From: an uncultured bacterium
GTDB lineage: Bacteria > Chlamydiota > Chlamydiia > Chlamydiales > SM23-39
DNA: 44,350 bases
Assembly: GCA_964450765.1 (NCBI GenBank)
Contig: CAYVDU010000001.1
Location: forward strand, 1-44,350
Direction: 5' to 3'
In this document: positions 14,975 through 39,492 of the stretch, one piece after another
How the letters are laid out: each line of letters opens with the position of its first letter
Position numbering within the stretch: position 1 is the stretch's first letter
Position numbers and translations under genes: made by a program
Notes under the pieces: generated by a model
Database searches by the model: none
Told to the model about the DNA's origin: nothing
What the model saw: only the letters and a program-made list of their open reading frames with translations

Positions 14975-15127
14975 CTGGAATACTCATGATGTAATAACAG
15001 GATAGATAGCGTTTTGCCCACTCCAAGAGTGAAACATTCGACCATTTTTGCCACTTCGTTACGAAATACCCCTTCCTCTTCCTCGCCTAATCTCAGTATA
15101 GTGATGAGAGCCTTTGATAATTACAAG

Positions 15128-19463: not shown

Positions 19464-20108
19464 TTAATTTGCTCCAGACAATAAGGGGATGACGATATGG
19501 TCCAGCAAAGAGTATGCTTTTTTGTTTAAATGAAGACCGTCTCCGCTGGTCAAGTCTGCTCTTAACCTTCGATCTGAATCACTCCTCCTCAAGGCAGCTT
19601 CCAAATCGAGAAGAAAAAAACCCTTCTCTTTCGAATATTTTTTAATCCAGTCATTGTATTCGAGAATATAGCTAAGCCGTTTTTCAAGATTGACTTTGCC
19701 CAGTGGGAAAACTTTCTTCAGAACATCCTTGAAATAGGGCACGCTCAAAAAATCAGGCGCGGTCACCGGCACCACCGTCGTGGGGATGGGGACGATGTTG
19801 TTTTTTGACAATTCCTCGATCCAGCCTTGCATGAGCCGCTTCTGTTTTCCGAAATCACCTGGAAAATAGGCGGCACACTCTTTTAGGAATACCGCGAATG
19901 GTCTATTCGAGGTCCTTTTCGTTATCTGGCTGACCGCTTCGCTTTTGTCGAAATCATATTCACCGATAAACTCAAACGTGTAACCGGTAACGCCGATCCT
20001 CTTCGGCAGCTCAGCGATATTCCAGGCGTGCCCCACCGACGCCCCCACCAAAATAATATGTTTTGTTTCTGAGCCGATCCTATGATTCAAGTCTATTCCC
20101 CTTAACAT
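19464..20108 (-). CDS. SGNH/GDSL-like hydrolase-fold protein (tentative), paralog A, no signal peptide
   Basis: 214 aa. IILVGASVGHAWN (GxS block-I-like) and SGDGLHLNKKAY (DxxH block-V-like). Roughly half the residues are identical to the adjacent ORF by eye. Confidence 0.4.
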   Translation of the reverse strand: MLRGIDLNHRIGSETKHIILVGASVGHAWNIAELPKRIGVTGYTFEFIGEYDFDKSEAVSQITKRTSNRPFAVFLKECAAYFPGDFGKQKRLMQGWIEELSKNNIVPIPTTVVPVTAPDFLSVPYFKDVLKKVFPLGKVNLEKRLSYILEYNDWIKKYSKEKGFFLLDLEAALRRSDSDRRLRADLTSGDGLHLNKKAYSLLDHIVIPLLSGAN

Positions 20109-20113
20109 GGTAG

Positions 20114-20833
20114 TTACTGCAGAGCGAGTTTCGTTTGTTCTTGATGCATGGTTTTCGCTTTCATTATTGTAGGGATAACGATCTTATCCAATAGGGCATA
20201 AGCATCTCGATTTAAATGCATTCCATCCCCACTGGATAACTCCGGTCTTAACCTCCGATCGCTTTCATCCCTCCTGAGGGTACCTTCTAAATCGAGAACA
20301 GCCAAACCTTTTTGATCGGCGTATTTTCTGACCCAATCGTTAAACTCCACAACGTAACTCTGTCTTTTTTCGATATTGATCTTGCCCATCGGCAGATATT
20401 TTTTCATCAGATTTTTAACATATTGTACCGTAAACATCCGAGGAGAGGTCACCGGAACGACCGTTGCCGGAATAGGAATAATCCCGTTTTTTTGAAGGGC
20501 CTCGATCCACTTTTGCATCAGCTCCTTCTGTTCCTCAAACTTGCCGGGGAAATAGGTGGAACACTCCTTTAAAATAACAGCATCAGGTTTTGGATTCCGC
20601 ATCAGGATTTCGTTCAACGCCTTGCTTTTATCGAAAACATACTCGCCGACGAACTCAAAGGTGTATCCTCCCGCGTCGATCCGATTCGGCAATTTCCCGA
20701 TATCCCATCCTTCTCCGATCGAAGCGCCAAGAAGAATGACATGTTTTGTTTGGGGAGTTTCAGCCCCGCTTGTCGCCCCTCCCCCCAAGAGCAGAAGAGA
20801 TAAAACGGCAAAAGCCCCGATTAAGGTTTTCAT
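20114..20833 (-). CDS. SGNH/GDSL-like hydrolase-fold protein (tentative), paralog B, with N-terminal signal peptide
   Basis: 239 aa. Signal-like MKTLIGAFAVLSLLLLGGGATSGAE, then VILLGASIGEGWD and SGDGMHLNRDAY. Confidence 0.4.
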   Translation of the reverse strand: MKTLIGAFAVLSLLLLGGGATSGAETPQTKHVILLGASIGEGWDIGKLPNRIDAGGYTFEFVGEYVFDKSKALNEILMRNPKPDAVILKECSTYFPGKFEEQKELMQKWIEALQKNGIIPIPATVVPVTSPRMFTVQYVKNLMKKYLPMGKINIEKRQSYVVEFNDWVRKYADQKGLAVLDLEGTLRRDESDRRLRPELSSGDGMHLNRDAYALLDKIVIPTIMKAKTMHQEQTKLALQ

Positions 20834-22038: not shown

Positions 22039-23268
22039 TCAGCGATTGCTGATCGAACAATTGGCAACCCACCGGAGGTCTTTCGATGGAGACTCTTGGA
22101 CAAGGAGTTGACAAACATTTTTTTTGTCCCACTCCGAAAGATAAGGATGGGTAGGTAACGCCAGAAGCGTCTCCGCCATCCTTTTCGCCACAGGAAAATC
22201 GCTTCCCTTGAAATGGTCCTTGATCTCTTCGATTTCATTGATTGGCACCGGGTACATCAGGCTGAGGCCGAAACCTTGTTTTCGTGAGAGGGCATAAAGC
22301 CGGTCTCGATCTTCATGGCGATTCATCAGAATAGGTAGCCGGAGGTAGGAAACGGCGCTTTCCTTCCTTACCGGTTTCAATTGTAAATGTTCTCTGAAGT
22401 ATGCTGCTGTTTCTGTCCTCTTTTGGTTCGATCGTTCCAGATGTTTCTTCCAGTTTCCCAGGAGAACGGCCTTCATTCCCGACAACTTCTTCACCGGGAA
22501 ATCCCGATGAAAAAACGTCTCCCCTAGTTTAAGAAAGGGAAGACCGGCCGGAAACCAGTAAAGGGCTGGACGAATAAAGAGGGTCATCAGCACAAGCTGT
22601 AGAAATTCCCCGATCGTTTCGCCCATCCGTGGCGCTTCGAGGTCATGATAATACCGACGGATTGCCTCGGCGATCCGGTCAGAATTTGTGACGACGATCC
22701 CGCCTGAACCGCAGGTAATGTTCTTTCCACGGCCCAGGCTAAAAAAACCAACGTCTCCGAGTGTGCCGAGCTTGGCCCTTTTGTAGTTCCCCCCCATTGC
22801 CTGAGCGGCATCTTCGACGACATAGACATCCCTCTCTCTGCAAAGGCGATTGACACGGTCCATATCCGAAGGAATCCCGAAGAGGTGGCTAGGAATGACG
22901 CAGAGGGTATCTTCAGTCACCGCTGCTTCCAGAAGTTGATAATCAAAATCGAAGGTCGAAGCATCAACATCACACAAGGCCACTTCAAGCCCTGCTTTCA
23001 AAATAGCCGAAGGAACGGAAAAACAGGTATACGCCGGAATGACAACCCCTCTCTTCGGGGAAAGCGACTTCAGCGCGAGCAAGATCAACGTTAGCGCCGC
23101 CTTTCCGGATGAAACAAGGAAAAGGTGTTTGACGCCGAAATAGGCTTTCATCTCCTCTTCAATTCGTTGAGTTGAAACGCGATCGGTAAAGAAACCGGTC
23201 AAACCGCGTCCGAGATCTTTCCAATCAAGCGGCGCCGCTGCCGGAGGGATCGTCCTCTGAATTTTCAT
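22039..23268 (-). CDS. DegT/DnrJ/EryC1/StrS-family PLP-dependent sugar aminotransferase
   Basis: 409 aa. VSSGKAALTLIL, VIPAYTCFSVPSAI, VVEDAAQAMGG, FFSLGRGKNITCGSGG (PLP lysine context). Confidence 0.85.
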   Translation of the reverse strand: MKIQRTIPPAAAPLDWKDLGRGLTGFFTDRVSTQRIEEEMKAYFGVKHLFLVSSGKAALTLILLALKSLSPKRGVVIPAYTCFSVPSAILKAGLEVALCDVDASTFDFDYQLLEAAVTEDTLCVIPSHLFGIPSDMDRVNRLCRERDVYVVEDAAQAMGGNYKRAKLGTLGDVGFFSLGRGKNITCGSGGIVVTNSDRIAEAIRRYYHDLEAPRMGETIGEFLQLVLMTLFIRPALYWFPAGLPFLKLGETFFHRDFPVKKLSGMKAVLLGNWKKHLERSNQKRTETAAYFREHLQLKPVRKESAVSYLRLPILMNRHEDRDRLYALSRKQGFGLSLMYPVPINEIEEIKDHFKGSDFPVAKRMAETLLALPTHPYLSEWDKKNVCQLLVQESPSKDLRWVANCSISNR

Positions 23269-24299
23269 GGAAGATTCCTCACGATCGAAGGACCGATCAG
23301 CTTTGTTAGGGCGACCGGAAGTTTTTTCCAGAGATGGATCGCTGCCGCATATTTTGGATTTTTGGGGTTCAACTCTGGAAGCGGCTCTTCATTTCGCATC
23401 CAGTAATACCAATACATCGGAACAGGGTTAGCTCCCCATTGCTCCTTAAATCTGTAAGTCCCTTCCCCCGGTGTCGAGCGGCCGAAATCAAAGACCCGGT
23501 ATCCTCTCTCGCAGGCCAAGCCAAGGGCGGTCCAGTAGAGGAGCATATTGGGGCTGGAGCGGTTGTATCCCTTGAGTGAAGAGGCCCACGGAATTTCAAT
23601 GGTTTCCCGGAACCCGATCAGAAACCCGGAGGCGACCGGAAGCGCGCCTTGGTAAACGGTGCAGATCCAACTCGTGTCTGGAAATGTTTCCAGGATATTT
23701 TTAAAAAATAGCTTCGGATAAACAGGTGTCCCAAGGTCCCGCATGTTTTCAGAGAAAACGGTATAAAAACTGTCCAGTTCGTCGACCTTCCCAATTTTCG
23801 AGACCATCCCTTCTTTCGTTGGTCTGCGAATTTGGCTCCTCAGCTTGGCGTCGAACGTCCTGAAAAGTTCATCACTGTTGGAAGGAAGGGCAAGCCGCAT
23901 CGACACCTTCGCGGTTTTGTATGGAAGACCGATATTCAAAGGGGTCTCTTGCCGCAATTCAATGTGGGACATTCCCTCTTTTTTGGCGCATTGAGCCGCT
24001 TCTTCCAAGAACGCGGTCGTTACGGAATCATCATCGCCGCAAATACCACCATAATTAAAGTAGGGGAGAGAAACCATAAAATTTCCAAAAAGAAAACTTT
24101 TTAGATGAACCGCCGGAAAAACCCCTCGGATATTTCTAAACTGGTCTTCTGCATACCAGTAATAGGTTTTCTGTCCGAAACTCTTTTCAACGACCTCCTT
24201 CCAACCGATATGGTGATACAGGGTCGAAGTGGGAGCGCTTTTGACATATCCTTCCCATCGTGCGAGATCTTTCGGTTGGTATAAAACGACCTTTATCAA
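23265..24299 (-). CDS. FemAB-family acyl/aminoacyl-transferase, PEP-CTERM-locus type
   Basis: 344 aa. N-terminus W..YV...P..TLYHHIGWKEVVEKSFGQKTYYW and C-terminal FDFGRSTPGEGTYRFKEQWGA are characteristic of the FemAB-like family found in exosortase loci. It shares a 4-nt overlap with the DegT gene. Confidence 0.7.
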   Translation of the reverse strand: MIKVVLYQPKDLARWEGYVKSAPTSTLYHHIGWKEVVEKSFGQKTYYWYAEDQFRNIRGVFPAVHLKSFLFGNFMVSLPYFNYGGICGDDDSVTTAFLEEAAQCAKKEGMSHIELRQETPLNIGLPYKTAKVSMRLALPSNSDELFRTFDAKLRSQIRRPTKEGMVSKIGKVDELDSFYTVFSENMRDLGTPVYPKLFFKNILETFPDTSWICTVYQGALPVASGFLIGFRETIEIPWASSLKGYNRSSPNMLLYWTALGLACERGYRVFDFGRSTPGEGTYRFKEQWGANPVPMYWYYWMRNEEPLPELNPKNPKYAAAIHLWKKLPVALTKLIGPSIVRNLP

Positions 24300-24301
24300 T
24301 C

Positions 24302-25390
24302 CTATCTCATCACAATTTTGGCCATCGATTTAAAAAACCGGAGCGTGAGCCAGATCATCAGGGGCCATCTTGGCTTATAAAAATGGAGTCCAAGGGAGCG
24401 GTCTCCTCGATCAGCCCAATGGAACTTATACTCCTCGTACCCTTTGAGAAAATTATACTCCGAATACCCTTCGGTAATCGCTTTTTCAATCGAAAGTCCC
24501 ACCAAGATATTTCCAATGCTGATATTTTTATTGAACGAATGGTCTACCGCCATCAGATACATCAAAAGGCTCTCTCCGCAGCGTAAATGCAAGAGTCCGG
24601 CGATGGTTTTTCCATCCACATTCAAGAGATCGAGCTGAACTTTGTCCTCTCCCTGAGAATGAAGAAGAACCTTCTCAACAAAGAGAAGAAGCTCATCTGC
24701 ATTGTCCCACCGCTGTTGATAAAGTGCCTTGAAGTCCTTGAGCACCGGCCCGATCTTCTCCCGTCTCAAGGAGTCATGACGAACCGCCCCTTCTCGCTCT
24801 AATAGCCTCAAGTGCCTTGAATATTGTTGTCTCCTATTAGGAGACAACCGCGCCAAAAAGTCTTCACGTGTTTTGGGAAGAACGAGGGAAGGGCAAAAAG
24901 CCCCTGCTTCCACCTCGGAATACTTTCCGTCTTCCTGCATCTGCTCTATAAAGTGAAGGAGAAATAAAGAATCGGACGGGACATCCAAAAACCCGAAACA
25001 GTCCCACTGAGAAACGGCTTCTTCAAAAAGAAACCGATAGATCGACCGGGCGACCTCTTTCTCTTTCCCCTTCTTTGCGAAAACATCCAGATAGTCCGAC
25101 CCCGCCTCCGGCGTCCCGAGAAACTCGATCCGCCTCATCGGGAATCCGCCATATCGGATTTTCCGTATGCACCAAGGGGCAATACCAATGAGGGTGTTCT
25201 CATTGTGAACCGTCAGAATATAGAGTTTACTGTCTTCTTTCAGGAAGACCTCTGCCCAGGGGTAGAGCCATTCCCATGTGAGAAAAATGCGATCCGACCC
25301 CGACCGACGAAGGAGATCGTTCCACTCTTTGGAAAGTGCTTGCCACCCTTCCATCGAAGTGACAATATTTATTTTGTGATCGCGGCTCAT
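24302..25390 (-). CDS. CelD/BcsL-like GNAT (FemAB-like fold) acyltransferase
   Basis: 362 aa. GWQALSKEWNDLL...IFLTWEWLYPWAEVF...LIGIAPW and C-terminal YNFLKGYEEYKFHWA resemble the Acetyltransf_6/CelD family. Confidence 0.6.
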   Translation of the reverse strand: MSRDHKINIVTSMEGWQALSKEWNDLLRRSGSDRIFLTWEWLYPWAEVFLKEDSKLYILTVHNENTLIGIAPWCIRKIRYGGFPMRRIEFLGTPEAGSDYLDVFAKKGKEKEVARSIYRFLFEEAVSQWDCFGFLDVPSDSLFLLHFIEQMQEDGKYSEVEAGAFCPSLVLPKTREDFLARLSPNRRQQYSRHLRLLEREGAVRHDSLRREKIGPVLKDFKALYQQRWDNADELLLFVEKVLLHSQGEDKVQLDLLNVDGKTIAGLLHLRCGESLLMYLMAVDHSFNKNISIGNILVGLSIEKAITEGYSEYNFLKGYEEYKFHWADRGDRSLGLHFYKPRWPLMIWLTLRFFKSMAKIVMR

Positions 25391-26946
25391 TGCGGCAAGA
25401 ACTCCGGAAGCAATGGCCGGATTGCTTTGATGAATGATTGACTCTGAACCGATTGCTTCAAAAGATCCTCCGGATGAGAAAAATCAGCGGTTACCATCAC
25501 GATAGCGCCGTCAGTTCTTGCTTGCAACAACGACCCGATCATCGTCTCTTTTTTCGCTTGATACCAATCGGCAACGTCGCGGCCATGCAGATAATACCAA
25601 AATAGGGTCAGTTTCTTTGGATTTCCGTCCTCTATCACACGATTCACTTCAATCAGGTGATTGTCATCAAGGCTTATTCTTATCTTTTCGGCATTGCGAT
25701 GGAGTCCGGAGACTTTATAGTTAATCAGCTTTTTTTCACGATCCTGGGACGCATAATACCCAACATACAAACGAAGGGAATCTCCGGTGTTTGTCTGATA
25801 GCTCCTTGAAAGTTCTTCATCCACCCCAAAAGTACGATAGAACAAATAATCTGGTGATGTTTCTTTCCCAAACCACTCTGCCAGTTGAATGGGAAAATTC
25901 TTTAAAGGCGCCTTTAATGGCGTCGGTTGCTGTTGATAGAGATGAAGGTAACTCCCTATCAGGAACAAGACGGCAGAAAGAAAGAGCCCTATGTTGGGGA
26001 GCTCAGTTTTTTTTAGAACGAGCCCTGGTCTGTTTTTCGGATTGAATGCTTTGGCCGACAGTGCCGAAGGCGCAGCAGGCTTCGACAGAATCCACACCCC
26101 CGCAAAAATCGTCCCATAACCGATCAGGGAGACAGAAAGTCCCTGTAGAACGTGGAAGGGACCGTGAAGATCTCCTGCAATGCCGTAATACGAAAGTGCC
26201 CCAATCAGGGCAACCCGGAGTACATTACTGAAGGCCGCAATGGTGACGGAAAACCCAAGAAGAAGGGTCCTTCTCCACCATCCAATCAAAAAAAGATAGG
26301 CCATGGGAATTCCGATTGCAATCACTGCAATCAGATAGTTGACCCCGCTACAAATATCGGCCACTTCCAGGGTGATATTTGGTAATTCAATATAGACTCC
26401 ATTTCGATAGACAGGGATACCGAAAAACCGTAGAAGCCGCGTCCCCAGATTCGCCGAAAAAAATTGAAAGGGAAGATGAAGCCGTTCTGTAATAAATCCC
26501 CAAAGCGGAATCATAAAAAGAAGATAGGCGATTGGAAACCACAAGTAACGAAGCGACCCCCCCCCCAACATCAGAAGAACGGCCCCCATCAGGGTCACGA
26601 TCAGCGAGAGTTCTTCAAGCAAGGCAATGCTGCTCGCGTGACCGACGACCAGCATCGATAAACCGGCCAGAAAGAGGAGACCCCCTTTAAGATAGTCCGG
26701 CGCCGGTTCGATCTCGCGGAGCTTTTCTCTTTGGACCCAAACCAGATAAAGGCTGATCCAGGGGATGAGAAAACCATACGAATAGATGTCGTTGCTCCAC
26801 CAGAGGCGGACCAAGGTCATAAACACCTGGACATAACAAAACACGAGGGCGAACAGGAGCAGTCCCGCCGACCCCAGAACTTGCCAATTGATTAAAAAAG
26901 TCTCTTTGGCATTCGAAAGAATGACCGATTTTTCTGAAAGCTTCAT
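25387..26946 (-). CDS. Exosortase (EpsH family) fused to a C-terminal EpsI-family domain
   Basis: 519 aa. YSYGFLIPWISLYLVW entry motif, and candidates for the invariant triad: ADICSGVNYL (Cys199, codon 26350..26352), NVLRVALIG (Arg244), LHGPFHVLQG (His261/265). About 8 TM helices in aa 1-290. After one more TM helix comes a soluble domain of about 200 aa (...YVGYYASQ...FWYYLHG...). Confidence 0.85.
   Translation of the reverse strand: MKLSEKSVILSNAKETFLINWQVLGSAGLLLFALVFCYVQVFMTLVRLWWSNDIYSYGFLIPWISLYLVWVQREKLREIEPAPDYLKGGLLFLAGLSMLVVGHASSIALLEELSLIVTLMGAVLLMLGGGSLRYLWFPIAYLLFMIPLWGFITERLHLPFQFFSANLGTRLLRFFGIPVYRNGVYIELPNITLEVADICSGVNYLIAVIAIGIPMAYLFLIGWWRRTLLLGFSVTIAAFSNVLRVALIGALSYYGIAGDLHGPFHVLQGLSVSLIGYGTIFAGVWILSKPAAPSALSAKAFNPKNRPGLVLKKTELPNIGLFLSAVLFLIGSYLHLYQQQPTPLKAPLKNFPIQLAEWFGKETSPDYLFYRTFGVDEELSRSYQTNTGDSLRLYVGYYASQDREKKLINYKVSGLHRNAEKIRISLDDNHLIEVNRVIEDGNPKKLTLFWYYLHGRDVADWYQAKKETMIGSLLQARTDGAIVMVTADFSHPEDLLKQSVQSQSFIKAIRPLLPEFLPQ
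26557..26566 (-). repeat. G10 homopolymer (C10 on the plus strand) inside the exosortase coding frame
   Basis: Plus strand aagcgaCCCCCCCCCCaaca. The minus strand reads TTG GGG GGG GGG TCG, encoding LGGGS at aa 127-131. Confidence 0.95.
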
Positions 26947-26978: not shown

Positions 26979-27965
26979 TTAGATGAGGATCTCACCCACC
27001 TCTTCGACCAGTAATGGTTTGGAATGCATATAGCGGGTGGCGTTTCTCTTGACATCGATATCCCGATAAACCCGTTCTACCTGTTGAGGAGTTAAGCCAA
27101 CCTCTTCTGCAGCCTCGGCGGTGGAAACCCCCGCATTTTTTGCGTAAAGACAGAGATCCATTTTGTCGTAGGGAAGGGAGAAATAAAACTCCTCCTGCGA
27201 CTGTGGTAATGAATAGGTATCGGTCGTCGGCGGACGCTGACGAATTTCAGCCGGAACACCCAAATAGGCCGCTAATTGATAGACCTGCGTTTTATAAAGA
27301 TGGGCAATTGGTTTGATGTCGGCCAAACCATCCCCACCTTTCACAAAAAACCCCTGATCGTATTCCAACCGATTTGGCGTTCCCGCTACAACATATTGCA
27401 GCCGGTCTGCATGGTAGTATTCAAAAAATTTTCTGGCGCGCTGCTTCATGTTTGTCGCGGCAACAATTCCAAGATATGACTTTACATTCAAGCGAACCGT
27501 CTGCTGTTCTCCCTTTGGCGATTCAATGACCAAGTGAAAGAAATTAAAACCGTCTTTCTCTAGGATGTTGGCCAAGACGATCTTCGATTTATATCCCTTT
27601 CCATATTCAGGGACTTGAGCCCGGATCGCTTCGTCTCTTCGTTGATAACATCCTGCCGCTTGTAGGAGAGGTCCGATATCTTCAAGGACGCTATCGATGC
27701 CAAGAGAATCGGCCAGAAGGCGGCCGAGCTTTATGCTGTCGTCAGAGGAATCCAGTTCCGGCATGAACAGTCCCAAGACCCGCTCACGCCCCAACGCCTT
27801 GGCGCAAAGGGCGGCAGTCACGCTGCTGTCAATACCGCCTGACAGGCCAACAACCACCCCTCTCCTTTTTAATTTGTGAAACACCTGCTCTCGTAAGATC
27901 TCCTCAATTTCCTGGGAAACCTGAGCGGTATCGATATTTAAAACTTCTTTCGAAAATTTTTTCAT
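26979..27965 (-). CDS. NadE-like PP-loop ATP-pyrophosphatase (NAD+ synthetase family)
   Basis: PP-loop VVVGLSGGIDSSVTAAL, GTPNRLEYDQGFFVKGGDGLADIKPIAHLYKTQVYQLAAYLGVP. I prefer the ATG at 27965 (AGGAG about 10 nt upstream) over the track's GTG at 28028, which lies inside the ligase gene. Confidence 0.8.
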   Translation of the reverse strand: MKKFSKEVLNIDTAQVSQEIEEILREQVFHKLKRRGVVVGLSGGIDSSVTAALCAKALGRERVLGLFMPELDSSDDSIKLGRLLADSLGIDSVLEDIGPLLQAAGCYQRRDEAIRAQVPEYGKGYKSKIVLANILEKDGFNFFHLVIESPKGEQQTVRLNVKSYLGIVAATNMKQRARKFFEYYHADRLQYVVAGTPNRLEYDQGFFVKGGDGLADIKPIAHLYKTQVYQLAAYLGVPAEIRQRPPTTDTYSLPQSQEEFYFSLPYDKMDLCLYAKNAGVSTAEAAEEVGLTPQQVERVYRDIDVKRNATRYMHSKPLLVEEVGEILI

Positions 27966-27978
27966 CGACAGTGTACTC

Positions 27979-29490
27979 CTAATGGGCTGTCCGCACCGGT
28001 ACTTTGAATGCGGCCCGACTGATTTCACGAAGCTCCTGCCTCAAGACCTTGCCGGAGAAAGATTTGGGAAGTTCCTTCACCAGACAAATCGCCTTGGGCC
28101 TTTTATAAGGGGCCAGATGTCGGGCGCAATAAGCAAGCAGTTCCATATCGGTTGGTTGATGGTCTTGTTTTGGGGAAACCACGCCGCAGATCGCCTCTCC
28201 CAAAACTGGGTCATCGACACCGACGACACCAGCTTCTCGGACACCTGGATGACTCAGGAGCACTTCTTCAATTTCAACAGGGCTGATACGGTATGCGCCT
28301 GATTTGATCATCTCACAGTTACGGCCGACGATCGTCAGATATCCCTCTTCATCCATACATCCCATGTCCCCGGTTCGAAGCCACCCACCTTGCAAGACTT
28401 TGGCGGTCGACTCCGGATCTTTCCAGTAGCCTTGCATGATATTTTCTCCGAAGGCATGGATCTCTCCAACCGCACCCGGTTTGGCAGCCTCTCCCCCCTC
28501 TTTTACGATTTTCAGGGTCACGCCCGGGATCGCTCTTCCTGCAGATCTCCCTCTTTGAAGAAGATCCTCAGGAGGCAGGAAGGCTAACCTTGCTGTCGCT
28601 TCGGTTTGACCATACATTAGATAGATTTTTTTCTCGGGAAAAACAGCCCGCAGCCGCTTCAGGAGTTCAGAGGGCATCGGCCCGCCGGCATTCGTCAGGT
28701 AACGCAACGTTGGAAATGGATGGTTTTTAAGATTCGCTTGGTTCAATAGAAGGGCATATGTGGATGCCACGCCGGAGAAACCGCTCACCTGTTCTTTTCC
28801 GATCCTTTCCAGAATGAGGTTTGGATAGACGAAGCTATTTTCAATGACCAGTTTTCCCCCGACAAATAAATGTGTGAGCATGACCGAGTTCCCGTAAGCA
28901 TAGACAAACGGGAGGACTGCCACGATGGAGTCTTCCGGACTCAGCTGAAGATAAGCCAGGATAGAGCGGGTATTTGCGATCAAGTTTTGATGAGAAAGCA
29001 TCACCCCCTTCGGCCGCCCCGTTGAGCCGGAGGTGTAGATGATTTGAGCCAGTTCAACCGGACTTTTTTCCGTCTCACCGTGGAACCGATTTGGGATGAG
29101 CTCATTTTCTCTTAAAATAAATTGCAGACAGGTTGACTTAAAATCGTTGGAAAACCATTGGCGTATGGAGGGAGAGACAATTAAAGCTTTCGCGCCAACA
29201 TGGGAGATCGTCCTCGAAACTTCCGACACGGAAGCCTGTGGATGAAGGGCGATGACACTTCCTCTCCGATTCATCACTGCCAGATAGGCGGCGATATATT
29301 GGGCAGAATTCTCCATCCATAAAAGGGCTCGATCCCCTTCGGAAAATCCCGCTTCAGACAGCTTTATCTCAAGATCGGCGGCACATCCCCCCAAATCGGC
29401 ATAGGTCCAATGGTGTTCTTTATGAACAACAGCCACCCTCTTTGGCCAGCGGTCGATTGTGTGCGCGATGATCTCTTCCAATCTCATCAT
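27979..29490 (-). CDS. AMP-forming acyl-CoA/acyl-ACP ligase, exosortase-locus type
   Basis: 503 aa. AMP-binding motif IYTSGSTGRPKGVMLSH, YGQTEA, GWLRTGDMG, and a C-terminal K in ...LPKSFSGKVLRQEL. Confidence 0.85.
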   Translation of the reverse strand: MMRLEEIIAHTIDRWPKRVAVVHKEHHWTYADLGGCAADLEIKLSEAGFSEGDRALLWMENSAQYIAAYLAVMNRRGSVIALHPQASVSEVSRTISHVGAKALIVSPSIRQWFSNDFKSTCLQFILRENELIPNRFHGETEKSPVELAQIIYTSGSTGRPKGVMLSHQNLIANTRSILAYLQLSPEDSIVAVLPFVYAYGNSVMLTHLFVGGKLVIENSFVYPNLILERIGKEQVSGFSGVASTYALLLNQANLKNHPFPTLRYLTNAGGPMPSELLKRLRAVFPEKKIYLMYGQTEATARLAFLPPEDLLQRGRSAGRAIPGVTLKIVKEGGEAAKPGAVGEIHAFGENIMQGYWKDPESTAKVLQGGWLRTGDMGCMDEEGYLTIVGRNCEMIKSGAYRISPVEIEEVLLSHPGVREAGVVGVDDPVLGEAICGVVSPKQDHQPTDMELLAYCARHLAPYKRPKAICLVKELPKSFSGKVLRQELREISRAAFKVPVRTAH

Positions 29491-29756
29491 GTGGTTCCTG
29501 TGACGACTCCTGATTTTTTCTGAACAAACCGAGTGAGCCGAGAGATAGTATCGAAGTTTTCTGGAAGGATTTCTTCATCATTGACGGTGATACCAAAAAC
29601 CTCCTCAACAAAGGAAACCAGATGGACGACTCCTGTCGAATCGATGATCCCCTTTTCCAAGAAAGACTCTTCGTCGCCTAATGTTTTAGATGTGTCCCCG
29701 AAAAGAAAAGTATCGGTAATGAATGCACACAACCGCTCTTTGATTGAGTTTCCCAA
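29487..29756 (-). CDS. Acyl carrier protein
   Basis: 89 aa. Phosphopantetheine site context GIIDSTGVVHLVSFVEE (Ser40). Shares a 4-nt overlap with the ligase gene. Confidence 0.75.
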   Translation of the reverse strand: MGNSIKERLCAFITDTFLFGDTSKTLGDEESFLEKGIIDSTGVVHLVSFVEEVFGITVNDEEILPENFDTISRLTRFVQKKSGVVTGTT

Positions 29757-29846
29757 AGATATCCCTCCGGTTCTTAATATATGTAAGTATACCTTCTGTT
29801 TTGCGTTTTGAAGCGTGATACGATTTTCCGTTACGTGTATGAAGAG

Positions 29847-31832
29847 CTATTTAAGACTTAAAAACGAATCTCCAGGGAATACGGCATTGAGATCCGGTTT
29901 CTTCTTTTTTATAAACTGCTCGTACAGCAGTTGAACCGACAAAGATCCAACCAGTGCCATCCCATCTTTTATCCCCATTTTTTCTTGACGGCGGCACCGT
30001 GCGAGAAGCCCATTCAGTGGTTTTGTTGAAAAGATGCCGGCATCATCGAGTCGCCCCGGAGAGAAGGCTTCGTCTACATAACCGAATCCTTTCCCATTTG
30101 GGAAAAGAGCGGCCTGGTCCGGAGCACGGTAAGGTTGTTTTTCTCTATTCAGAATCGCAGACGGTAATTTCCCTTCGGCACCCTGGCGTAGAACATGCTT
30201 TTCTCTCAAGCATTTCAACTTGAAATGAGGCGGAATGGTTGCGGCAAATTCGACGACCCGATGATCTAAAAACGGATAACGGCCTTCGACGCCGTGCGCC
30301 ATTGCCATCCGGTCTCCTTGCGAAGCGAGAATATATCCAGGAAGAAGGTAGGCCGATTCGAGATACTGAGCTTGTGAGAGGGGATGCCACGTTGAGAAGG
30401 CCAACGGCAACTCATCTCGAAGCTCGGCGATAGGATCGTATCCCTTCAATGCTTCCTTCATCTTCTCGGAGTAAAGACCTTTTAAGGAAGAAGTTACTCG
30501 CCAGCGAGGAGCGTGGGAATAGAAGGGATCATTCGTTTCTTCCAAGCCCTGACCGAAGAAGGCGGTTAGATATGCGGCGGCTTGTCCCTTCATCTCGGAA
30601 AGATATGGATAAAGGCGCCGCAACAGGAGGGGACGCATCCGAGATTTGGGTGCTTGAGCCCAGAACCGTCGTACCTTCGCTTCCTTAAATATATCATACC
30701 CGGCCAGGACCTCATCCGCCCCCTCCCCGGTGAGAACGACTTTGATTCCTGCTTCGCGGACCCCTTTTGCCAGGAGCATCATCGGAACTGGTGCCGTTCG
30801 AATGATTGGTCTTTCTGTGTGCCAGATCGCTCTCGGGAAAACCTCGCCGATCTGCGTGCTACTGCATCGAAAGGCATGATGTTCTGTGCCAAGATGGCGA
30901 ACAACCATCGATTGAAAGGCGCTCTCATCAAAGTCTTTGGCTTCGAATCCGATCGAAAATGTTTTTAACCGATCATTGATTCGGTGCCTGGAAAGGGCGG
31001 TGATCACGGAAGAGTCGAGCCCTCCACTAAGATATGTGCCGACCGGAACATCGGCGCGAAGGCGAATCTTCACCGCTTCGTCCAAAAGCTGCATCAAAGT
31101 CTCGGTGTACCATTTTTCGGGGTGAGGATGAGACAGTCTGGACTCTTCCATCGAAGGGAACGGAAGGTCCCAGTACTGGTCGATCCGGGTTCCCCTTTCG
31201 CTCACTGTCATTGTGTGACCGGGGGGGAGCTCGTTCACTCCGATGAAACCGGTCCGGGGAGGGATCGGAAACCAAAACGTGAAGACCTGATCGATAGCAA
31301 AGGGATCGATTTCCCTTGGAAGAGTCGGGTCTTCAAAAAGGGCCTTGATCTCCGAACCGAAAAGAAGGCTTCCATTGTGCTCGGTATAAAAGAGCGGCCT
31401 CACTCCCATTCGATCTCTTGCGAGAAGGAGTTCGCGCCGTCTTCCATCCCATAGGGCAAAAGCAAATTGGCCATTGAATTCCCTGACGCAGTTTTCACCC
31501 AGCTCTTCATAAGCATGCACGATTACTTCAGTGTCTGAACCGGTCTTAAAGGTGTGTCCCTTAATGATCAGGGATGATCTGAGTTCATGGTGGTTATAGA
31601 TTTCCCCGTTGAAAACGACCCAGATCGAACCATCCTCATTGCACATTGGTTGATGCCCACCGGAAAGGTCGACGATGCTGAGCCGGGTATGTCCCAACCC
31701 GAGATCATTCGAGAGGTAGGTTCCTGAATCGTCCGGACCGCGATGATCGAGTGTTCCAACCATTCGATCTAAGAGAGCCCGATTTACAGGCACTTTTGAA
31801 ATTATATTCCAAATGCCAGCTATTCCGCACAT
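29847..31832 (-). CDS. Asparagine-synthase-family glutamine amidotransferase (AsnB-like), exosortase-locus type
   Basis: 661 aa. N-terminal nucleophile MCGIAGIW, GHQPM, and PP-loop-like YLSGGLDSSVI in the synthetase domain. Confidence 0.9.
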   Translation of the reverse strand: MCGIAGIWNIISKVPVNRALLDRMVGTLDHRGPDDSGTYLSNDLGLGHTRLSIVDLSGGHQPMCNEDGSIWVVFNGEIYNHHELRSSLIIKGHTFKTGSDTEVIVHAYEELGENCVREFNGQFAFALWDGRRRELLLARDRMGVRPLFYTEHNGSLLFGSEIKALFEDPTLPREIDPFAIDQVFTFWFPIPPRTGFIGVNELPPGHTMTVSERGTRIDQYWDLPFPSMEESRLSHPHPEKWYTETLMQLLDEAVKIRLRADVPVGTYLSGGLDSSVITALSRHRINDRLKTFSIGFEAKDFDESAFQSMVVRHLGTEHHAFRCSSTQIGEVFPRAIWHTERPIIRTAPVPMMLLAKGVREAGIKVVLTGEGADEVLAGYDIFKEAKVRRFWAQAPKSRMRPLLLRRLYPYLSEMKGQAAAYLTAFFGQGLEETNDPFYSHAPRWRVTSSLKGLYSEKMKEALKGYDPIAELRDELPLAFSTWHPLSQAQYLESAYLLPGYILASQGDRMAMAHGVEGRYPFLDHRVVEFAATIPPHFKLKCLREKHVLRQGAEGKLPSAILNREKQPYRAPDQAALFPNGKGFGYVDEAFSPGRLDDAGIFSTKPLNGLLARCRRQEKMGIKDGMALVGSLSVQLLYEQFIKKKKPDLNAVFPGDSFLSLK

Positions 31833-31890: not shown

Positions 31891-32841
31891 TTACGAGTGA
31901 GGACCCGCTCCAACAGTGCAGGATTGATATTCCGTTGCCTTTCCCAAAAGAGGGGCCTGGGTCATTATTTTTTCTTTCAAGGTGCGGAGAGGGGCAAACC
32001 GGAAGTCTTGAAGCAGTTGCCGGAGACGTGGTTCGGTCTTATTAAGATTGACATAATGTCGGAAACGGGACCGAAAACTTCCGTTAATCCGGGGTTGGAT
32101 CGGGTCAATCTCCCATGGGTGGAGGTAAACGTTGGCTGGAATCCCCTCATGATCATTGAGGCGACGGATCGCCCATTGACTATACCGATAGGGGAAGAGA
32201 CGGAAATAGCCTCCCCCTGCGGCCGGTACATTCCACCCCATGATCCGAACCGTTGATAAAGGAAATTCCAGGAGTCGGGCACCATTCGAAAGCGAATGAA
32301 AATAAGGATAACGACGTGCGTTCGGAATGCCATAAAGATCGTGATGGATTGGGAAGATACTCGAATCATATTCGAATCCAATTTTCTGGAGGAAATCGAG
32401 ACACCAGAGGGTTTCACGGATAATCGAATAGCTCGGGGCTCGGTAGCCAATCACTGGGATACCGCTGAGATTTTCTAAAATTTCTTTTGATCGCTGTGTA
32501 TCCTCCTTGAACTCCTCTCGGCTCATTCGATAAATAAGGCGGTGCCGATAGCCGTGAGAGGCGATTTCATGCCCCTCTTTTTGGATGGCGAGCACCAGTT
32601 GAGGATATTTCTCTGCGATCCAGCCGAGAATGAAAAAAGTCGCTTTCACTTGGTAGAAATTTAGAATCTCGATGATTCGCCATGTATTGGCAACCACCCT
32701 ACTCTCATGACGACTCCAATCTTCAAAGCGGATTTGCGGCTCAAAAGCGGCTACTTGATAATAATCTTCAACATCAATCGTCAACGCATTGACAACATCC
32801 AAGGGACCTGGGAGGAGCCGTCTTTCAGGCGCCGGTTTCAA
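31891..32841 (-). CDS. Polysaccharide deacetylase, PEP-CTERM-locus subfamily
   Basis: 316 aa. NALTIDVEDYYQV..., KATFFILGWIAEKYP and IASHGYRH are typical of the deacetylase subfamily seen in exosortase loci. Confidence 0.8.
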   Translation of the reverse strand: MKPAPERRLLPGPLDVVNALTIDVEDYYQVAAFEPQIRFEDWSRHESRVVANTWRIIEILNFYQVKATFFILGWIAEKYPQLVLAIQKEGHEIASHGYRHRLIYRMSREEFKEDTQRSKEILENLSGIPVIGYRAPSYSIIRETLWCLDFLQKIGFEYDSSIFPIHHDLYGIPNARRYPYFHSLSNGARLLEFPLSTVRIMGWNVPAAGGGYFRLFPYRYSQWAIRRLNDHEGIPANVYLHPWEIDPIQPRINGSFRSRFRHYVNLNKTEPRLRQLLQDFRFAPLRTLKEKIMTQAPLLGKATEYQSCTVGAGPHS

Positions 32842-36512: not shown

Positions 36513-36558
36513 TTCCCCTGGTGTCCTCTCTTAAATCTTCTCGGTGGTATGTCTAAGA

Positions 36559-36588
36559 ATTGTAAAAATCTCGAATCCGGTTTGTAAA
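36559..36588 (-). promoter_or_regulatory. Candidate sigma70-type promoter for the EPS operon (TTTACA-N18-TACAAT)
   Basis: The minus strand reads TTTACA (36583..36588), an 18-nt spacer, then TACAAT (36559..36564), about 45 nt upstream of the ATG at 36512. Pattern match only. Confidence 0.3.
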
Positions 36589-37015
36589 ACAGGAGCTTGC
36601 GGTGATCCGGAGCCATCCCTGGGAAAACTTCATGATATATAGTAAAATGTATGTGATCACTTCCTAGAGATCAATCCCCTCAAAAGGGGGGGGCATCATC
36701 CCTCTTTAAAAATTTATAATACATTGAAATTAAATAATACTTAATCTACGTATTATTTTTAAATAGGGACCTTGTAATGATTAGTTTCTGATTATGTTAA
36801 GTATAATTATATAGTATATTGTGCCTAATATTAAGTTCTCATTTTATCATAATCTCATTTAAGTTGGAGTTCAGAGGTGGAGGATAGTAGGACCTTTGAT
36901 TTTTTGATAGAAACATTCAGGAAACTGACAGCTTTTTATGTAGAGAGCCTCAGTAATAACACTTGTCTTTGGGTTAGCCCCCTATGAAGTGTCTCAGTAA
37001 TGGTTTTACAGTCCA

Positions 37016-37082
37016 TTCATCCTGAGCGTGTCGAACCAAGAACGGATTAATATCGTTCATACCTCGACACGCTCAGGATGAA
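37016..37082. repeat. Perfect 19-bp inverted repeat with a 29-nt spacer (REP/MITE-like palindromic element)
   Basis: ttcatcctgagcgtgtcga (37016..37034) against tcgacacgctcaggatgaa (37064..37082). There is an inner 5-bp stem gaacg/cgttc (37040..37044 / 37054..37058) and outer gtgtctc/gagacac (36989..36995 / 37106..37112). Confidence 0.9.
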
Positions 37083-37206
37083 CGGGGTATGTTAAAGAAG
37101 TATTGGAGACACGACACTAACTATGGTGGGGGGCGAAAGGATTGGGATTGTTTTGAAGTCAGCAGTATAAGTAGAAAAACCTACGGATAAGTAACATTAT
37201 ATATAC

Positions 37207-39492
37207 TCATAGTCCCTGAAGTGTTTTTTCCGCTTCATCCGAGCCCGGGAATATCTTGCTTAACCTTAATGACTCAGCGAGTTCTCTTTTGGCATCCTCT
37301 TTCTGTCCGTTTTTATAATATGCCATGCCGAGGTGGTATCGAACGACGGGGTTCTGAGAAAGCTTGGCGGCGCTCTCTTCCAAAAGGGAGATCGCTTTCA
37401 GATAAACATTCTTCTTATAGTAGATCCAGCCGAGCGTATCCGAAATTCCCGGATCATCGGGATGTTTTTCCTTCGCCATCTGCGCCAGGTCTAACGCACG
37501 GTCGATATTTCCGCCATGTTCAGCATAAAGCCATGCCAGGTTATTTGCCGCAGGGGTAAATGTTGAGTCTATTTCAAGTGCCTTTTCATATTCCTTTTGC
37601 GCTTCATCATGTTTCTGTTGCCCGTCGTAAATCACCCCCCGTAACATATGAATTTGGGGCGCATTTGGTTTGACTTTCAGGGCTTCATCCAGTCGATGTA
37701 AGGCCTGATCGAATTTTTTCTCATGGGCATATAGATTTCCAAGATCGATATATGAAACCAGGTCATTCGGATTCACTTCGATTCCTTTTTGAAGGGCCTC
37801 TTCGGCTTTCTTGAGGTCCCTTTTCGTAATATAGAGTTTGGCCAAAAGAGAATACAAAGCCGAATTTTGAGGCGATACTTCTATCTGCGTGATCACCCGT
37901 TTGAGTGCCTTCTCAAGGTCTTTTTTGGAGAGGTCGATTGAGACGATTCGTGCCAATGCCTCAACATGATTGGGATAAAGAGAGAGCGCTTTTTCAAAGA
38001 GGGGAACCGCCTCCTGTTCCTTTTTCTGGCTGTATCGAATCAGGCCCAATTTGTAGTAACCGATCGGGTTATCCGGAGCCGACTTCATGACCTGTTGATA
38101 AACCGCCTCCGCCTTTTTAATCTCCCCTTTCAAGAATGACGCGTCTCCCAAAATCACCTGCGCCGTCAGATTCCCCGGGTCCAATGCGGTCACCCGTTCC
38201 GCTTCAGAAGCGGCAAGGTCAAATGAACGCGACTGGAGATAAATGTCGGCCAGAACAAGCCGGGCCCGGAAGTCATTCGGATTCTGCTTGACCGCCTCTA
38301 AAAACGCCCCCTTCGCTTGTTGAGGATGATGATCGGCGAGCAAGGCAAGCCCAAGGTAATATTGCCCTGAAAAGAGGGACGGTTCGGACTGGATCGCCTT
38401 CCGCAGAAATGTGACCGCTTCGCCGCTCTTGTTCTCGGTAAGGAGGAACCGTCCTTTTAGCAAAAGTCCCTCCGGGTTTCCCTCGTTTTTGCCAAGGATT
38501 TCTTCAATCATCCCCTTCGCTTCTTCTTTCTTTCCCTGACTCAGGTAGAAATCCGCCAGCTTTTTCCAGACAAAAATCGATTCCGGCTTTGCCTCTTTTG
38601 CTTGTCGATAACTCTTTTCCGCTTCTTCCATTTTTCGAAGGCCGGCATAAAAATCGCCGAGTGTGATCAACGGCTCAGGGTCTTTCGGGTCGAGACGGGT
38701 CGCTTCGATCAACCGCATCTCCGCTTCTGCGGTCCGTTTTTCAATGATGTAAAAATTCGCCAATCCGAAATAGAGAAATTTGTTCTTGGGCGCGATCGAG
38801 AGCCCTTTTTGGTAGTAAGATTCCGCTTCTTTCGGTTGACGGGTATAATGATAAAACCGAGCCAGATGGATGTGACTTTCGACCGATTGCGGATCGATGG
38901 CGAGGGCCTTTTGAAGGAGGGCCTCTGCGGCAGCGGGATCCTTCTTCATTAGGGAGAGGCCGGCGAATTCGTAATAGGTCGGCAGACGCTTCGGGTCAAG
39001 GTCGAGCATCTCTTGATAAATCTTTCCAGCCTCATCGAGACGGCCTTCCCGCTGGTCGATTCGTGCCTTGATGGAGAGCGCACCCAGGTTATCCGGTGCT
39101 TTTTCCAACACCCGGTCGGCTTTTTCCCATGCACTCTTGAGGTCGTTGGCCGATAAGTAAAGCATGGCAAGGTCGACTTGGGCATCAATCAGTTCGGGTC
39201 TTTGCTCCGTCACCTCGCTCAAGAGTTTAAACCCGTTCCGAAGATTCGCCGTACCCCCGAGTTTTAGATAGATCCGTCCAAGTTGGTATTTTGCATCGGA
39301 ATGATTCGGGTCGGCCTGCAAGACGTTTTTAAACTCGATCATTGCCTCTGGATATTTCATTTGAGAAACATATTCCATCCCCCTCCGAAAATGCTTCTCT
39401 TTCTTGGCCTCGGTCGAAGTGCAAGAGGATAACGCTGCAAGAAAGAACAGGGAGAAGACCACCAAGAGGATTGTTTTTAACTTCATGTTCAC
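37207..39492 (-). CDS. prsT: PEP-CTERM-system TPR-repeat lipoprotein
   Basis: 761 aa. Lipoprotein signal MNMKLKTILLVVFSLFFLAALSSC (lipobox LSSC), followed by TPR repeats throughout (many A..Y..AL..DP motifs). It sits at the head of an exosortase locus. Confidence 0.8.
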   Translation of the reverse strand: MNMKLKTILLVVFSLFFLAALSSCTSTEAKKEKHFRRGMEYVSQMKYPEAMIEFKNVLQADPNHSDAKYQLGRIYLKLGGTANLRNGFKLLSEVTEQRPELIDAQVDLAMLYLSANDLKSAWEKADRVLEKAPDNLGALSIKARIDQREGRLDEAGKIYQEMLDLDPKRLPTYYEFAGLSLMKKDPAAAEALLQKALAIDPQSVESHIHLARFYHYTRQPKEAESYYQKGLSIAPKNKFLYFGLANFYIIEKRTAEAEMRLIEATRLDPKDPEPLITLGDFYAGLRKMEEAEKSYRQAKEAKPESIFVWKKLADFYLSQGKKEEAKGMIEEILGKNEGNPEGLLLKGRFLLTENKSGEAVTFLRKAIQSEPSLFSGQYYLGLALLADHHPQQAKGAFLEAVKQNPNDFRARLVLADIYLQSRSFDLAASEAERVTALDPGNLTAQVILGDASFLKGEIKKAEAVYQQVMKSAPDNPIGYYKLGLIRYSQKKEQEAVPLFEKALSLYPNHVEALARIVSIDLSKKDLEKALKRVITQIEVSPQNSALYSLLAKLYITKRDLKKAEEALQKGIEVNPNDLVSYIDLGNLYAHEKKFDQALHRLDEALKVKPNAPQIHMLRGVIYDGQQKHDEAQKEYEKALEIDSTFTPAANNLAWLYAEHGGNIDRALDLAQMAKEKHPDDPGISDTLGWIYYKKNVYLKAISLLEESAAKLSQNPVVRYHLGMAYYKNGQKEDAKRELAESLRLSKIFPGSDEAEKTLQGL

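Follow-up and report, generated by a model that had tools for sequence, protein, structure and literature searches.

What might four genes for carboxylate activation and carrier chemistry be doing side by side between a polysaccharide N-deacetylase and an exosortase? The question is raised by a stretch of 44,350 nucleotides from an uncultured bacterium (contig CAYVDU010000001.1 of assembly GCA_964450765.1, positions 1 to 44,350), here called the window, in which positions 26979–31832 encode an AsnB-like glutamine amidotransferase, a small carrier protein, an adenosine monophosphate (AMP)-forming ligase and a protein resembling NadE, the ammonia-dependent nicotinamide adenine dinucleotide (NAD) synthetase. 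An original prediction, made from the sequence alone, had described these as four tightly packed genes acting as one module of undescribed chemistry. We find that they make up a conserved and mobile cassette that is optional in exosortase operons. On balance, we think it probable that this cassette works on a carrier-bound acyl group, which would be amidated and then passed by an N-acyltransferase to an amino sugar of a polysaccharide.

All four genes were confirmed as neighbours on the minus strand, each with its expected motif, and searches with Pfam and NCBIfam hidden Markov models bore out all four family assignments. The AsnB-like glutamine amidotransferase (29847..31832, 661 aa) starts with MCGIAG and carries an SGGLDSS PP-loop; its GATase and Asn_synthase domains represent a glutaminase with an N-terminal Cys and a PP-loop synthetase, and it scores 536 bits against TIGR01536 (cutoff 267). 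Its assignment to the XrtA/PEP-CTERM amidotransferase family TIGR03108 was ruled out (480 bits against a cutoff of 817). The carrier protein (29487..29756, 89 aa), for acyl or aminoacyl groups, has its phosphopantetheine serine at Ser40 within IIDSTG. Its match to PP-binding is weak (20.5 bits), and its best curated family is the OlsHI acyl carrier protein (ACP), at 47.5 bits and under the cutoff of 130. The AMP-forming ligase of the ANL family (27979..29490, 503 aa) contains YTSGSTGRPKG together with AMP-binding and AMP-binding_C domains and is the presumed loader of the carrier; membership of TIGR03098 was ruled out (346 bits against a cutoff of 592). Finally, the NadE-like PP-loop ATP-pyrophosphatase (26979..27965, 328 aa) has the motif LSGGIDSS and an NAD_synthase domain, and scores 523 bits against NF002048 (cutoff 313). 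Its open reading frame was called as 26979-28028, with the true ATG at 27965. The 328-aa product is identical to a database protein from a Candidatus Manganitrophaceae metagenome-assembled genome (P0001), and because this protein and all homologues begin at M22 (MKKFSK), the real gene is 26979-27965.

The spacing of these genes is close throughout. From the deacetylase through the AsnB-like, carrier, ligase and NadE-like genes to the exosortase, successive gaps are 58, 90, −4, 13 and 32 nt, and no convincing intergenic terminator was found between the deacetylase and the exosortase. Judged by one shared strand, gaps of −4 to 90 nt and this lack of an intergenic terminator, the four cassette genes appear to constitute a single tightly linked transcription unit.

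This linkage is conserved well beyond the window. A scan of one genome per GTDB species returned more than 545 relatives of the NadE-like protein, of which the best 80 have 59–69% identity to the window protein, and 83 dereplicated loci were surveyed. Partners were counted by tblastn with the window proteins, on the same strand and within 7 kb, an AsnB-like match requiring at least 40% identity. The best 80 relatives span about ten phyla (Nitrospirota, Acidobacteriota, Myxococcota, Alpha-, Beta- and Gammaproteobacteria, Actinomycetota, Planctomycetota, Verrucomicrobiota, Gemmatimonadota, Elusimicrobia and others). An AsnB-like homologue lies near the NadE-like gene in 67 of the 83 loci, an AMP-ligase in the same number and a carrier protein in 66, while all three partners occur in 52 loci and at least one in 79. 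Thirty cassette patterns were seen, about 19 of them complete four-gene orders. With A for the AsnB-like gene, C for the carrier, L for the ligase and N for the NadE-like gene, the order A-C-L-N occurs 25 times and N-A-L-C nine times, with many others besides. That the genes stay together through so much shuffling, in such distantly related bacteria, argues strongly for a single pathway. Thus the proposal of a single module held up over about ten phyla despite shuffled gene order, and it is further strengthened by the gene fusions discussed below.

No fifth universal partner family emerged when all open reading frames of the 83 loci were clustered, using a choice of reading frames that takes third-codon-position G+C content (GC3) into account. 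Accessory genes were large Eis-like and other GNATs (25 loci), GT4 glycosyltransferases (17 loci), a HemK-family methyltransferase (15 loci, often inside the cassette), hexapeptide acyltransferases (10 loci), exosortases of two types (10 loci) and SDRs (nine loci). A GNAT or hexapeptide acyltransferase is present in 34 of the 83 loci, and a polysaccharide-type gene lies within 10 kb in only 31. Among loci with full flanks, only one NadE-like gene is truly solo (L001), and it sits beside transposase genes. This lone gene and its relatives (L001–L003; contig ERZ25039512 contig_42428 and relatives; 76% identity) have IS91-type and TnpB (Cas12f-like) genes upstream and eutBC downstream, and are possibly the leftover of a broken cassette.

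Gene fusions give a more direct indication of what the NadE-like protein works with. A complete AMP-ligase is fused to the NadE-like domain in P0121 (849 aa), a protein found in three independent assemblies and encoded in an AsnB-ACP-[ligase·NadE-like]-GNAT locus. P0131 (510 aa) joins the NadE-like domain to AMP-binding_C and a carrier domain, and P0124 joins it to a phosphopantetheinyl transferase (PPTase); a PPTase gene also adjoins that of a NadE-like member at 31% identity. Fusions to ligase, carrier domain and PPTase thus tie the NadE-like subfamily to phosphopantetheinyl carrier biochemistry. The P0131 gene lies in a nonribosomal peptide synthetase-like cluster (L173:6207-12594, on metagenome contig ERZ24794679 NODE_2245), where an A-T protein, a GDSL protein, two alpha/beta-hydrolases and a PPTase adjoin it. 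In this fusion, the NadE-like domain stands in for the N-terminal core of an adenylation enzyme, which suggests that the NadE fold is able to serve carrier-protein chemistry directly.

The protein itself departs from NadE in defined ways. The subfamily is that of NF002048 (PRK00876), whose model is also passed by the Sinorhizobium meliloti copy, 61% identical to the window protein. By sequence, the nearest structure is Pyrococcus horikoshii NadE (2E18), which matches in two stretches split by an insert of about 67 residues; the subfamily has no solved structure of its own. The insert (residues 103-169) contains C106, Y107, K128 and R158, all invariant among 69 homologues. In an AlphaFold model built from these homologues (pLDDT 91, pTM 0.90), it is predicted to consist of one helix (106-115) followed by a sheet of three strands (126-158), after which comes a long helix (161-189). 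A Foldseek search with the model returned NAD synthetases only (2E18 with a TM score of 0.82 normalized to the target), and none of them has the insert. Mapping Bacillus subtilis NadE (sequence verified against PDB 1EE1) onto the family showed that the adenylation and amidation residues of the PP-loop and the Mg/ATP ligands are conserved (S42, D46, S47, R178, T196, E201, K209, D212, K225 and T247), and that Y32, F129, T169, E223, H257, R78 and Q84 are replaced. From the conserved catalytic residues, carboxylate adenylation followed by attack of ammonia is probably retained. In an exhaustive search of 1.84 billion representatives, 442 clusters were found at E ≤1e-30, with full-length, insert-bearing members reaching down to approximately 31–40% identity. 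Divergent members (31–41% identity) are on contigs of 1–2 kb, and their gene context is fragmentary.

The cassette is also horizontally mobile. Its NadE-like gene occurs on 116 PLSDB plasmids or chromids, from Sinorhizobium (76), Azospirillum (12), Ensifer (nine), Shinella (eight) and Mesorhizobium (seven), among others. On a pSymB-type replicon of S. meliloti (L088), we found a free-standing operon, asnB-ACP-acyl-CoA ligase-nadE, with no polysaccharide genes near it. The families and their A-C-L-N order are the same as in the window, the AsnB-like proteins being 53% identical and the carrier proteins 44%. The window shares four of the five features tested for the S. meliloti pSymB-type cassette, the exception being an SMb20650-type ligase; furthermore, the S. 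meliloti operon stands on a chromid free of polysaccharide or exosortase genes, whereas the window copy is embedded in an exosortase (XrtW) operon. On a Mesorhizobium plasmid the order is nadE-asnB-ligase-ACP, beside a methyltransferase gene and with insertion sequence elements on the flanks, and Azospirillum thermophilum has GT2-GT4-GT4-deacetylase-ACP-ligase-asnB-nadE-GNAT and no exosortase. In the Mesorhizobium loci L039, L059, L069 and L079, two genes come after an N-A-L-C cassette, the first resembling a type I secretion ABC permease/ATPase and the second a conserved gene for a protein of roughly 516 aa; these neighbours hint at an exported product or an acylated exported protein.

The S. 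meliloti operon means that the gene set is not new: it is annotated on pSymB-type replicons and has been on record since 2009, when study of its ACP and ligase began, and it has never been explained. The gene smb20650, for a predicted long-chain acyl-CoA ligase of pSymB, is co-transcribed with the ACP gene smb20651; when SMb20650 was introduced into E. coli cells that produced holo-SMb20651, this ACP became acylated in vivo, and smb20650 was unable to replace FadD (PMC7232532, which cites Ramos-Vega et al., 2009, Microbiology 155:257, for the S. meliloti genes). In a paper from 2017, the function of SMb20651 was still said to need investigation. SMb20651 is taken here to be the product of the ACP gene in the L088 operon. 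The abstract from 2009 reportedly gives the operon as asnB, smb20651, smb20650 and nadE1, the gene order in L088 being the part that our analysis verified, and it is said to mention C12 and C18 acyl forms of SMb20651 in E. coli. The whole of pSymB can be removed once engA and a tRNA-Arg gene have been moved to the chromosome (PMC4207669); the NadE-like copy on pSymB is therefore not the sole NAD synthetase of S. meliloti.

How, then, is the cassette related to the exosortase? The window exosortase (25387..26946, minus strand) begins 32 nt downstream of the cassette and is an XrtW with a fused EpsI domain (573 bits against NF038142, cutoff 425), EpsI/DUF3485 being its C-terminal domain; XrtA was ruled out (193 bits against a cutoff of 208). 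Directly upstream of the cassette is an XrtA-system-type polysaccharide N-deacetylase (31891..32841, minus strand; TIGR03006, 390 bits, cutoff 276), which may be the source of an amine acceptor. Gene-neighbourhood analysis upheld the link between the NadE-like gene and its cassette partners, and it did not uphold a general link to exosortases, since an exosortase lies within 10 kb in only about 10 of the 83 loci. With none within that distance in the other 73, the cassette is independent and not, as had been suggested, a variant of the ligase, ACP, decarboxylase and hydrolase set associated with exosortase A. The predicted absence of a pyridoxal phosphate (PLP)-dependent decarboxylase and of alpha/beta-hydrolases was borne out for the scanned window open reading frames of at least 110 aa.

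Approached from the exosortase side, the cassette proves frequent yet optional. We searched metagenome contigs with an alignment of XrtW homologues and obtained 50 XrtW-like loci with at least 1.2 kb of upstream sequence, in which the immediate upstream neighbour of XrtW was a NadE-like gene in 20, a deacetylase in seven, a ligase in five and an ACP in three. Where at least 6 kb was available (24 loci), nine had a NadE-containing cassette, seven had an ACP and/or ligase only (with or without AsnB) and eight had none. Of the 16 closest XrtW relatives (identity of 44% or more), 12 had a NadE-containing cassette. The cassette-less locus L099 has chain-length, kinase, priming-transferase, deacetylase, GNAT, FemAB and DegT genes 61–80% identical to those of the window, and in it the deacetylase is followed by a NusG-like gene and then XrtW, with no cassette between. 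In cassette-less XrtW loci generally, the deacetylase is just upstream of XrtW, abutting it or parted from it only by the NusG-like gene. From these survey counts and L099, XrtW operons may carry or lack the cassette, and those that carry it have it in a fixed position, after the N-deacetylase gene and before that of the exosortase. The idea that it is a core or obligatory part of the XrtW system was rejected, with the NadE-like gene directly upstream in only 20 of the 50 loci.

Two further features of these loci deserve mention. Many related loci (L099:9200-9773, L004:5333-5947, L097 and L112) have the NusG-like (transcription antiterminator-type) gene after the TIGR03006 deacetylase and ahead of the cassette or XrtW, unlike the window, where no such gene separates deacetylase and cassette. 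In four Nitrospira-type XrtW loci (L033, L110, L144 and L165), two tandem AMP-ligases stand between the ACP and the NadE-like gene, one of the SMb20650 type and one of the window type. The window ligase is 58–70% identical to the second of these and to the sole cassette ligase of L009, the window and L009 keeping only the second.

In the pathway that we favour, the ligase would adenylate a carboxylic acid and load it onto the carrier protein as a thioester. The AsnB-like enzyme, with ammonia from its own glutaminase, would then convert a free carboxylate of the tethered or growing unit to a carboxamide, and the NadE-like protein, as a PP-loop adenylating amidase without a glutaminase, would use free or channelled ammonia to amidate another carboxylate. 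The finished group would be moved to an amine by an N-acyltransferase, of the GNAT or FemAB type here and perhaps an Eis-like GNAT or hexapeptide transferase elsewhere. In the window, the candidate transferases are a GNAT (Acetyltransf_6; 24302..25390, minus strand, with a 4-nt overlap with the XrtW stop) and a FemAB-family XrtA/PEP-CTERM-associated protein (23265..24299, minus strand; TIGR03019, 381 bits, cutoff 260). The likeliest acceptor in this operon would be a polysaccharide amino sugar that the deacetylase has exposed or that has come from the DegT/PseC-type sugar aminotransferase of the operon (22039..23268, minus strand), an enzyme that makes an amino sugar. Of this scheme, loading by the ligase, both amidations, the final transfer, the nature of the acid and the acceptor are the elements that we infer.

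Several observations are consistent with this pathway. The nearest solved structure to the AsnB-like protein is the tailoring hydroxyamidotransferase 7YLZ (E 2e-66), with E. coli AsnB ranking behind it, which fits an amidation model. HemK-family enzymes are N5-glutamine (amide-nitrogen) methyltransferases, and the presence of one with the cassette in 15 loci fits a carboxamide product. Similarly, the layout of deacetylase, cassette and N-acyltransferase in the window, Azospirillum and L006 fits re-acylation of a de-N-acetylated amino sugar. A bolder form of the same proposal would hold that NF002048 proteins are not NAD synthetases and form a new functional class of PP-loop enzymes with the NadE fold, working on phosphopantetheinyl carrier proteins or loading them, the cassette being a widespread pathway for an amidated, sometimes amide-N-methylated, acyl group grafted onto de-N-acetylated surface sugars, including those of XrtW matrices. 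We put this forward tentatively, as a possibility that falls somewhat short of an even chance.

A number of points weigh against this pathway. Although several of the residues taken to contact nicotinic acid adenine dinucleotide (NaAD) in B. subtilis NadE are changed (Y32, F129, T169, E223 and H257), most nicotinate-site residues are kept (N133, R137, Y144, F167, F168, K170, D173, D177 and K258); NaAD or a similar pyridine or aryl carboxylate is thus a possible substrate. No member of the family has a recorded product, substrate or phenotype. About two thirds of the cassette loci (52 of 83), that of S. meliloti included, have no polysaccharide-type gene within 10 kb, so that the acceptor is not a glycan in general. 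Some cassettes lack the ligase (A-C-N) and others lack NadE (A-C-L, C-L), which makes the order of steps uncertain. The window ligase is not of the SMb20650 type, sharing 34% identity with such ligases and falling in a separate, divergent paralogue group, so that cassettes may differ in their cargo. Both the GNAT and the FemAB types of the window also occur in cassette-less XrtW loci and are thus not transferases specific to the cassette, the GNAT being part of the XrtW core. Lastly, the NadE–AsnB fusions P0155 and P0208 are doubtful, and we regard them as unreliable because they are singletons and because an N-terminal fusion would block the Cys1 nucleophile of the glutaminase.

The first of these points leads to an alternative in which the NadE-like protein really does act as an ammonia-dependent NAD+ synthetase, in a housekeeping or an auxiliary role, and hitch-hikes with the cassette or supplies NAD locally, the chemistry needing only AsnB, ACP and ligase. 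Such an enzyme would be expected to pass the NCBIfam NAD(+) synthase subfamily model NF002048, as this one does, and every structural neighbour is a NadE; the catalytic and most nicotinate-site residues are conserved, a 76%-identical copy stands alone in L001–L003, and some XrtW loci have A-C-L cassettes without the NadE-like gene. However, that solo copy adjoins transposase genes, the conserved insert is in no solved NadE, and Y32, F129 and H257 are replaced. Moreover, it is hard to reconcile a bystander with partner linkage in 79 of the 83 loci despite shuffled orders, or with the ligase, carrier-domain and PPTase fusions. Nor do the relatives behave as housekeeping genes, in agreement with the original prediction: besides this partner linkage, they are plasmid-borne in rhizobia, with 116 plasmid records in all, and the pSymB carrying the S. 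meliloti copy is dispensable. We therefore consider a true NAD synthetase quite unlikely, and the NAD(+) synthase name of the NF002048 subfamily is probably a functional mis-annotation.

A different kind of alternative retains the joint chemistry and changes its destination. The product might be a small molecule that is lipid-like or secreted, such as an amidated fatty-acyl or N-acyl amino-acid amide, or it might be an acceptor or anchor for the exosortase, and not a polysaccharide decoration, the place in XrtW operons then reflecting co-regulation or acceptor supply. Here the free-standing S. meliloti operon without glycan genes, the 52 loci without polysaccharide-type neighbours, the ornithine-lipid ACP as the nearest curated family of the carrier, the C12 and C18 acyl forms of SMb20651 reportedly seen in E. 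coli, the type I secretion pair downstream in some Mesorhizobium loci and the NadE-like gene directly abutting the exosortase gene in 20 XrtW loci all speak for this alternative. However, SMb20650 does not activate oleate for growth (PMC7232532), and the deacetylase-cassette-GNAT layout recurs within glycosyltransferase clusters. As for the exosortase, cassette-less XrtW loci such as L099 mean that the cassette cannot supply an obligatory sorting acceptor. We place this alternative on the unlikely side. The amidated uronic acid and the group on the sorting acceptor put forward in the original prediction would be further possibilities. It could also be argued that each of the four genes does something separate and that chance or operon packing has made them neighbours, AsnB making a uronamide, ligase and ACP carrying out acylation and NadE making NAD. 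Every family does have known stand-alone roles; WbpS and similar AsnB-like enzymes, for instance, amidate the uronic acids of O-antigens. Nevertheless, co-occurrence over phyla, replicon types and 30 patterns, together with the fusions, is far beyond chance, and this explanation is so improbable as to be effectively excluded.

Comparison with known systems helps to place the pathway of carrier-bound amidation that we prefer. With NadE itself (EC 6.3.1.5; B. subtilis 1KQP and P. horikoshii 2E18), the NadE-like protein has in common the fold, the PP-loop, the Mg/ATP ligands and the FFxKxGDG motif, and probably also two-step adenylation and amidation; it is unlike NadE in its 67-residue insert, its replaced residues, its linkage to carrier genes, its occasional fusions and its plasmid-borne, dispensable copies. 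The exosortase-A set (TIGR03098–TIGR03101), whose composition we take from TIGRFAM names, resembles the window in having an AMP-ligase and a small ACP in a PEP-CTERM/exosortase polysaccharide locus, and TIGR03098 is the best curated match of the SMb20650-type cassette ligase (457 bits). The window differs from it in having XrtW and not XrtA, and an AsnB-like and a NadE-like enzyme in place of the decarboxylase and hydrolases. In D-alanylation by DltA and DltC, an ANL ligase loads a dedicated carrier and the cargo ends on a cell-surface polymer. Compared at domain level, this is a resemblance of logic only, as the cassette has no DltB or DltD homologues and includes two extra amidating enzymes. 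The AsnB homologues OxyD (malonamyl starter unit) and WbpS (uronamide) amidate pathway carboxylates rather than aspartate; among such AsnB-like tailoring enzymes (OxyD, TsnB9 7YLZ and WbpS), none is known to be paired with a NadE-like enzyme.

The prediction that the chemistry is undescribed stands, in that no curated family names the system and the only literature found calls its function unknown. We found no published link between exosortases and NAD synthase, and nothing relevant on XrtW or on NadE, AsnB or ACP in polysaccharide clusters, except for the papers on the S. meliloti ACP and ligase; Haft (2006) makes no mention of the ligase, decarboxylase, ACP or NAD, and Aravind (2010) deals with other systems. 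What is new, to our knowledge and within the literature searched, is how broad and robust the linkage is, that carrier machinery is fused to the NadE-like protein, and that XrtW operons have a recurrent, optional docking site, occupied in the window by a cassette with a divergent ligase.

The wider surroundings of the cassette are those of a surface polysaccharide locus. According to Pfam and NCBIfam scans of its open reading frames, a single long polysaccharide operon of the PEP-CTERM/exosortase kind fills the whole central part of the window, on the minus strand. It starts with genes for a PrsT-like TPR protein, a chain-length determinant, a tyrosine kinase and a TIGR03013 priming transferase, and continues through the TIGR03006 deacetylase, the four cassette genes, the exosortase, the GNAT, the FemAB-family protein and the DegT aminotransferase; the rest comprises glycosyltransferases, additional deacetylases, a flippase and WecB. 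The identical arrangement is found in a close Manganitrophus relative (L169). No PEP-CTERM-like C-terminal tails were found in the window with a regular expression, a negative that is weak because the pattern was strict. Upstream of the chain-length determinant there is a 695-bp non-coding gap (36513-37207, 37% G+C) that holds the best sigma-70-like matches of the region, and the Poly_export (Wza-like) gene that L004 and L169 have directly upstream of the chain-length determinant has no counterpart detected anywhere in the window.

Farther along, two tandem open reading frames with weak GDSL/SGNH-like matches (19464-20833) are shared with L169, and GDSL-like genes recur near the cassette in eight genome loci. 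The polysaccharide operon also includes a module for sugar transfer by way of a lipid carrier (12327-16069), made up of an ArnC-like GT2 (15128-16069), a protein whose LPG_synthase_TM domain is flippase-like (14066-14974) and a membrane glycosyltransferase of the ArnT/PMT_2 kind (12327-14066). At the distal end of the operon are a PaaK/F390-synthetase-like adenylating enzyme (1817-3097), a CapA-like PGA_cap protein (3291-4421) and a deacetylase (4425-5507), and an integrase-core (rve) fragment lies at the left end of the window (134-832). The G+C content is approximately 55% at both window ends, 39–45% over the glycosyltransferase and flippase part (2–21 kb) and 48–51% over the exosortase part; the distal polysaccharide genes have the look of a region that varies or was acquired.

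In summary, the name NAD(+) synthase is applied automatically to this subfamily in hundreds of species, among them rhizobia, Azospirillum, Sorangium, Nitrospira and the manganese-oxidizing Manganitrophus lineage, and the fusions point to a carrier-linked chemistry so far undescribed for the NadE fold. The natural contrast between XrtW loci with and without the cassette, together with tractable hosts such as S. meliloti and Azospirillum, makes the question a testable one. If the proposal is true, the cassette would give XrtW systems an optional means of chemically decorating their polysaccharide matrix, a point of interest for biofilm biology.

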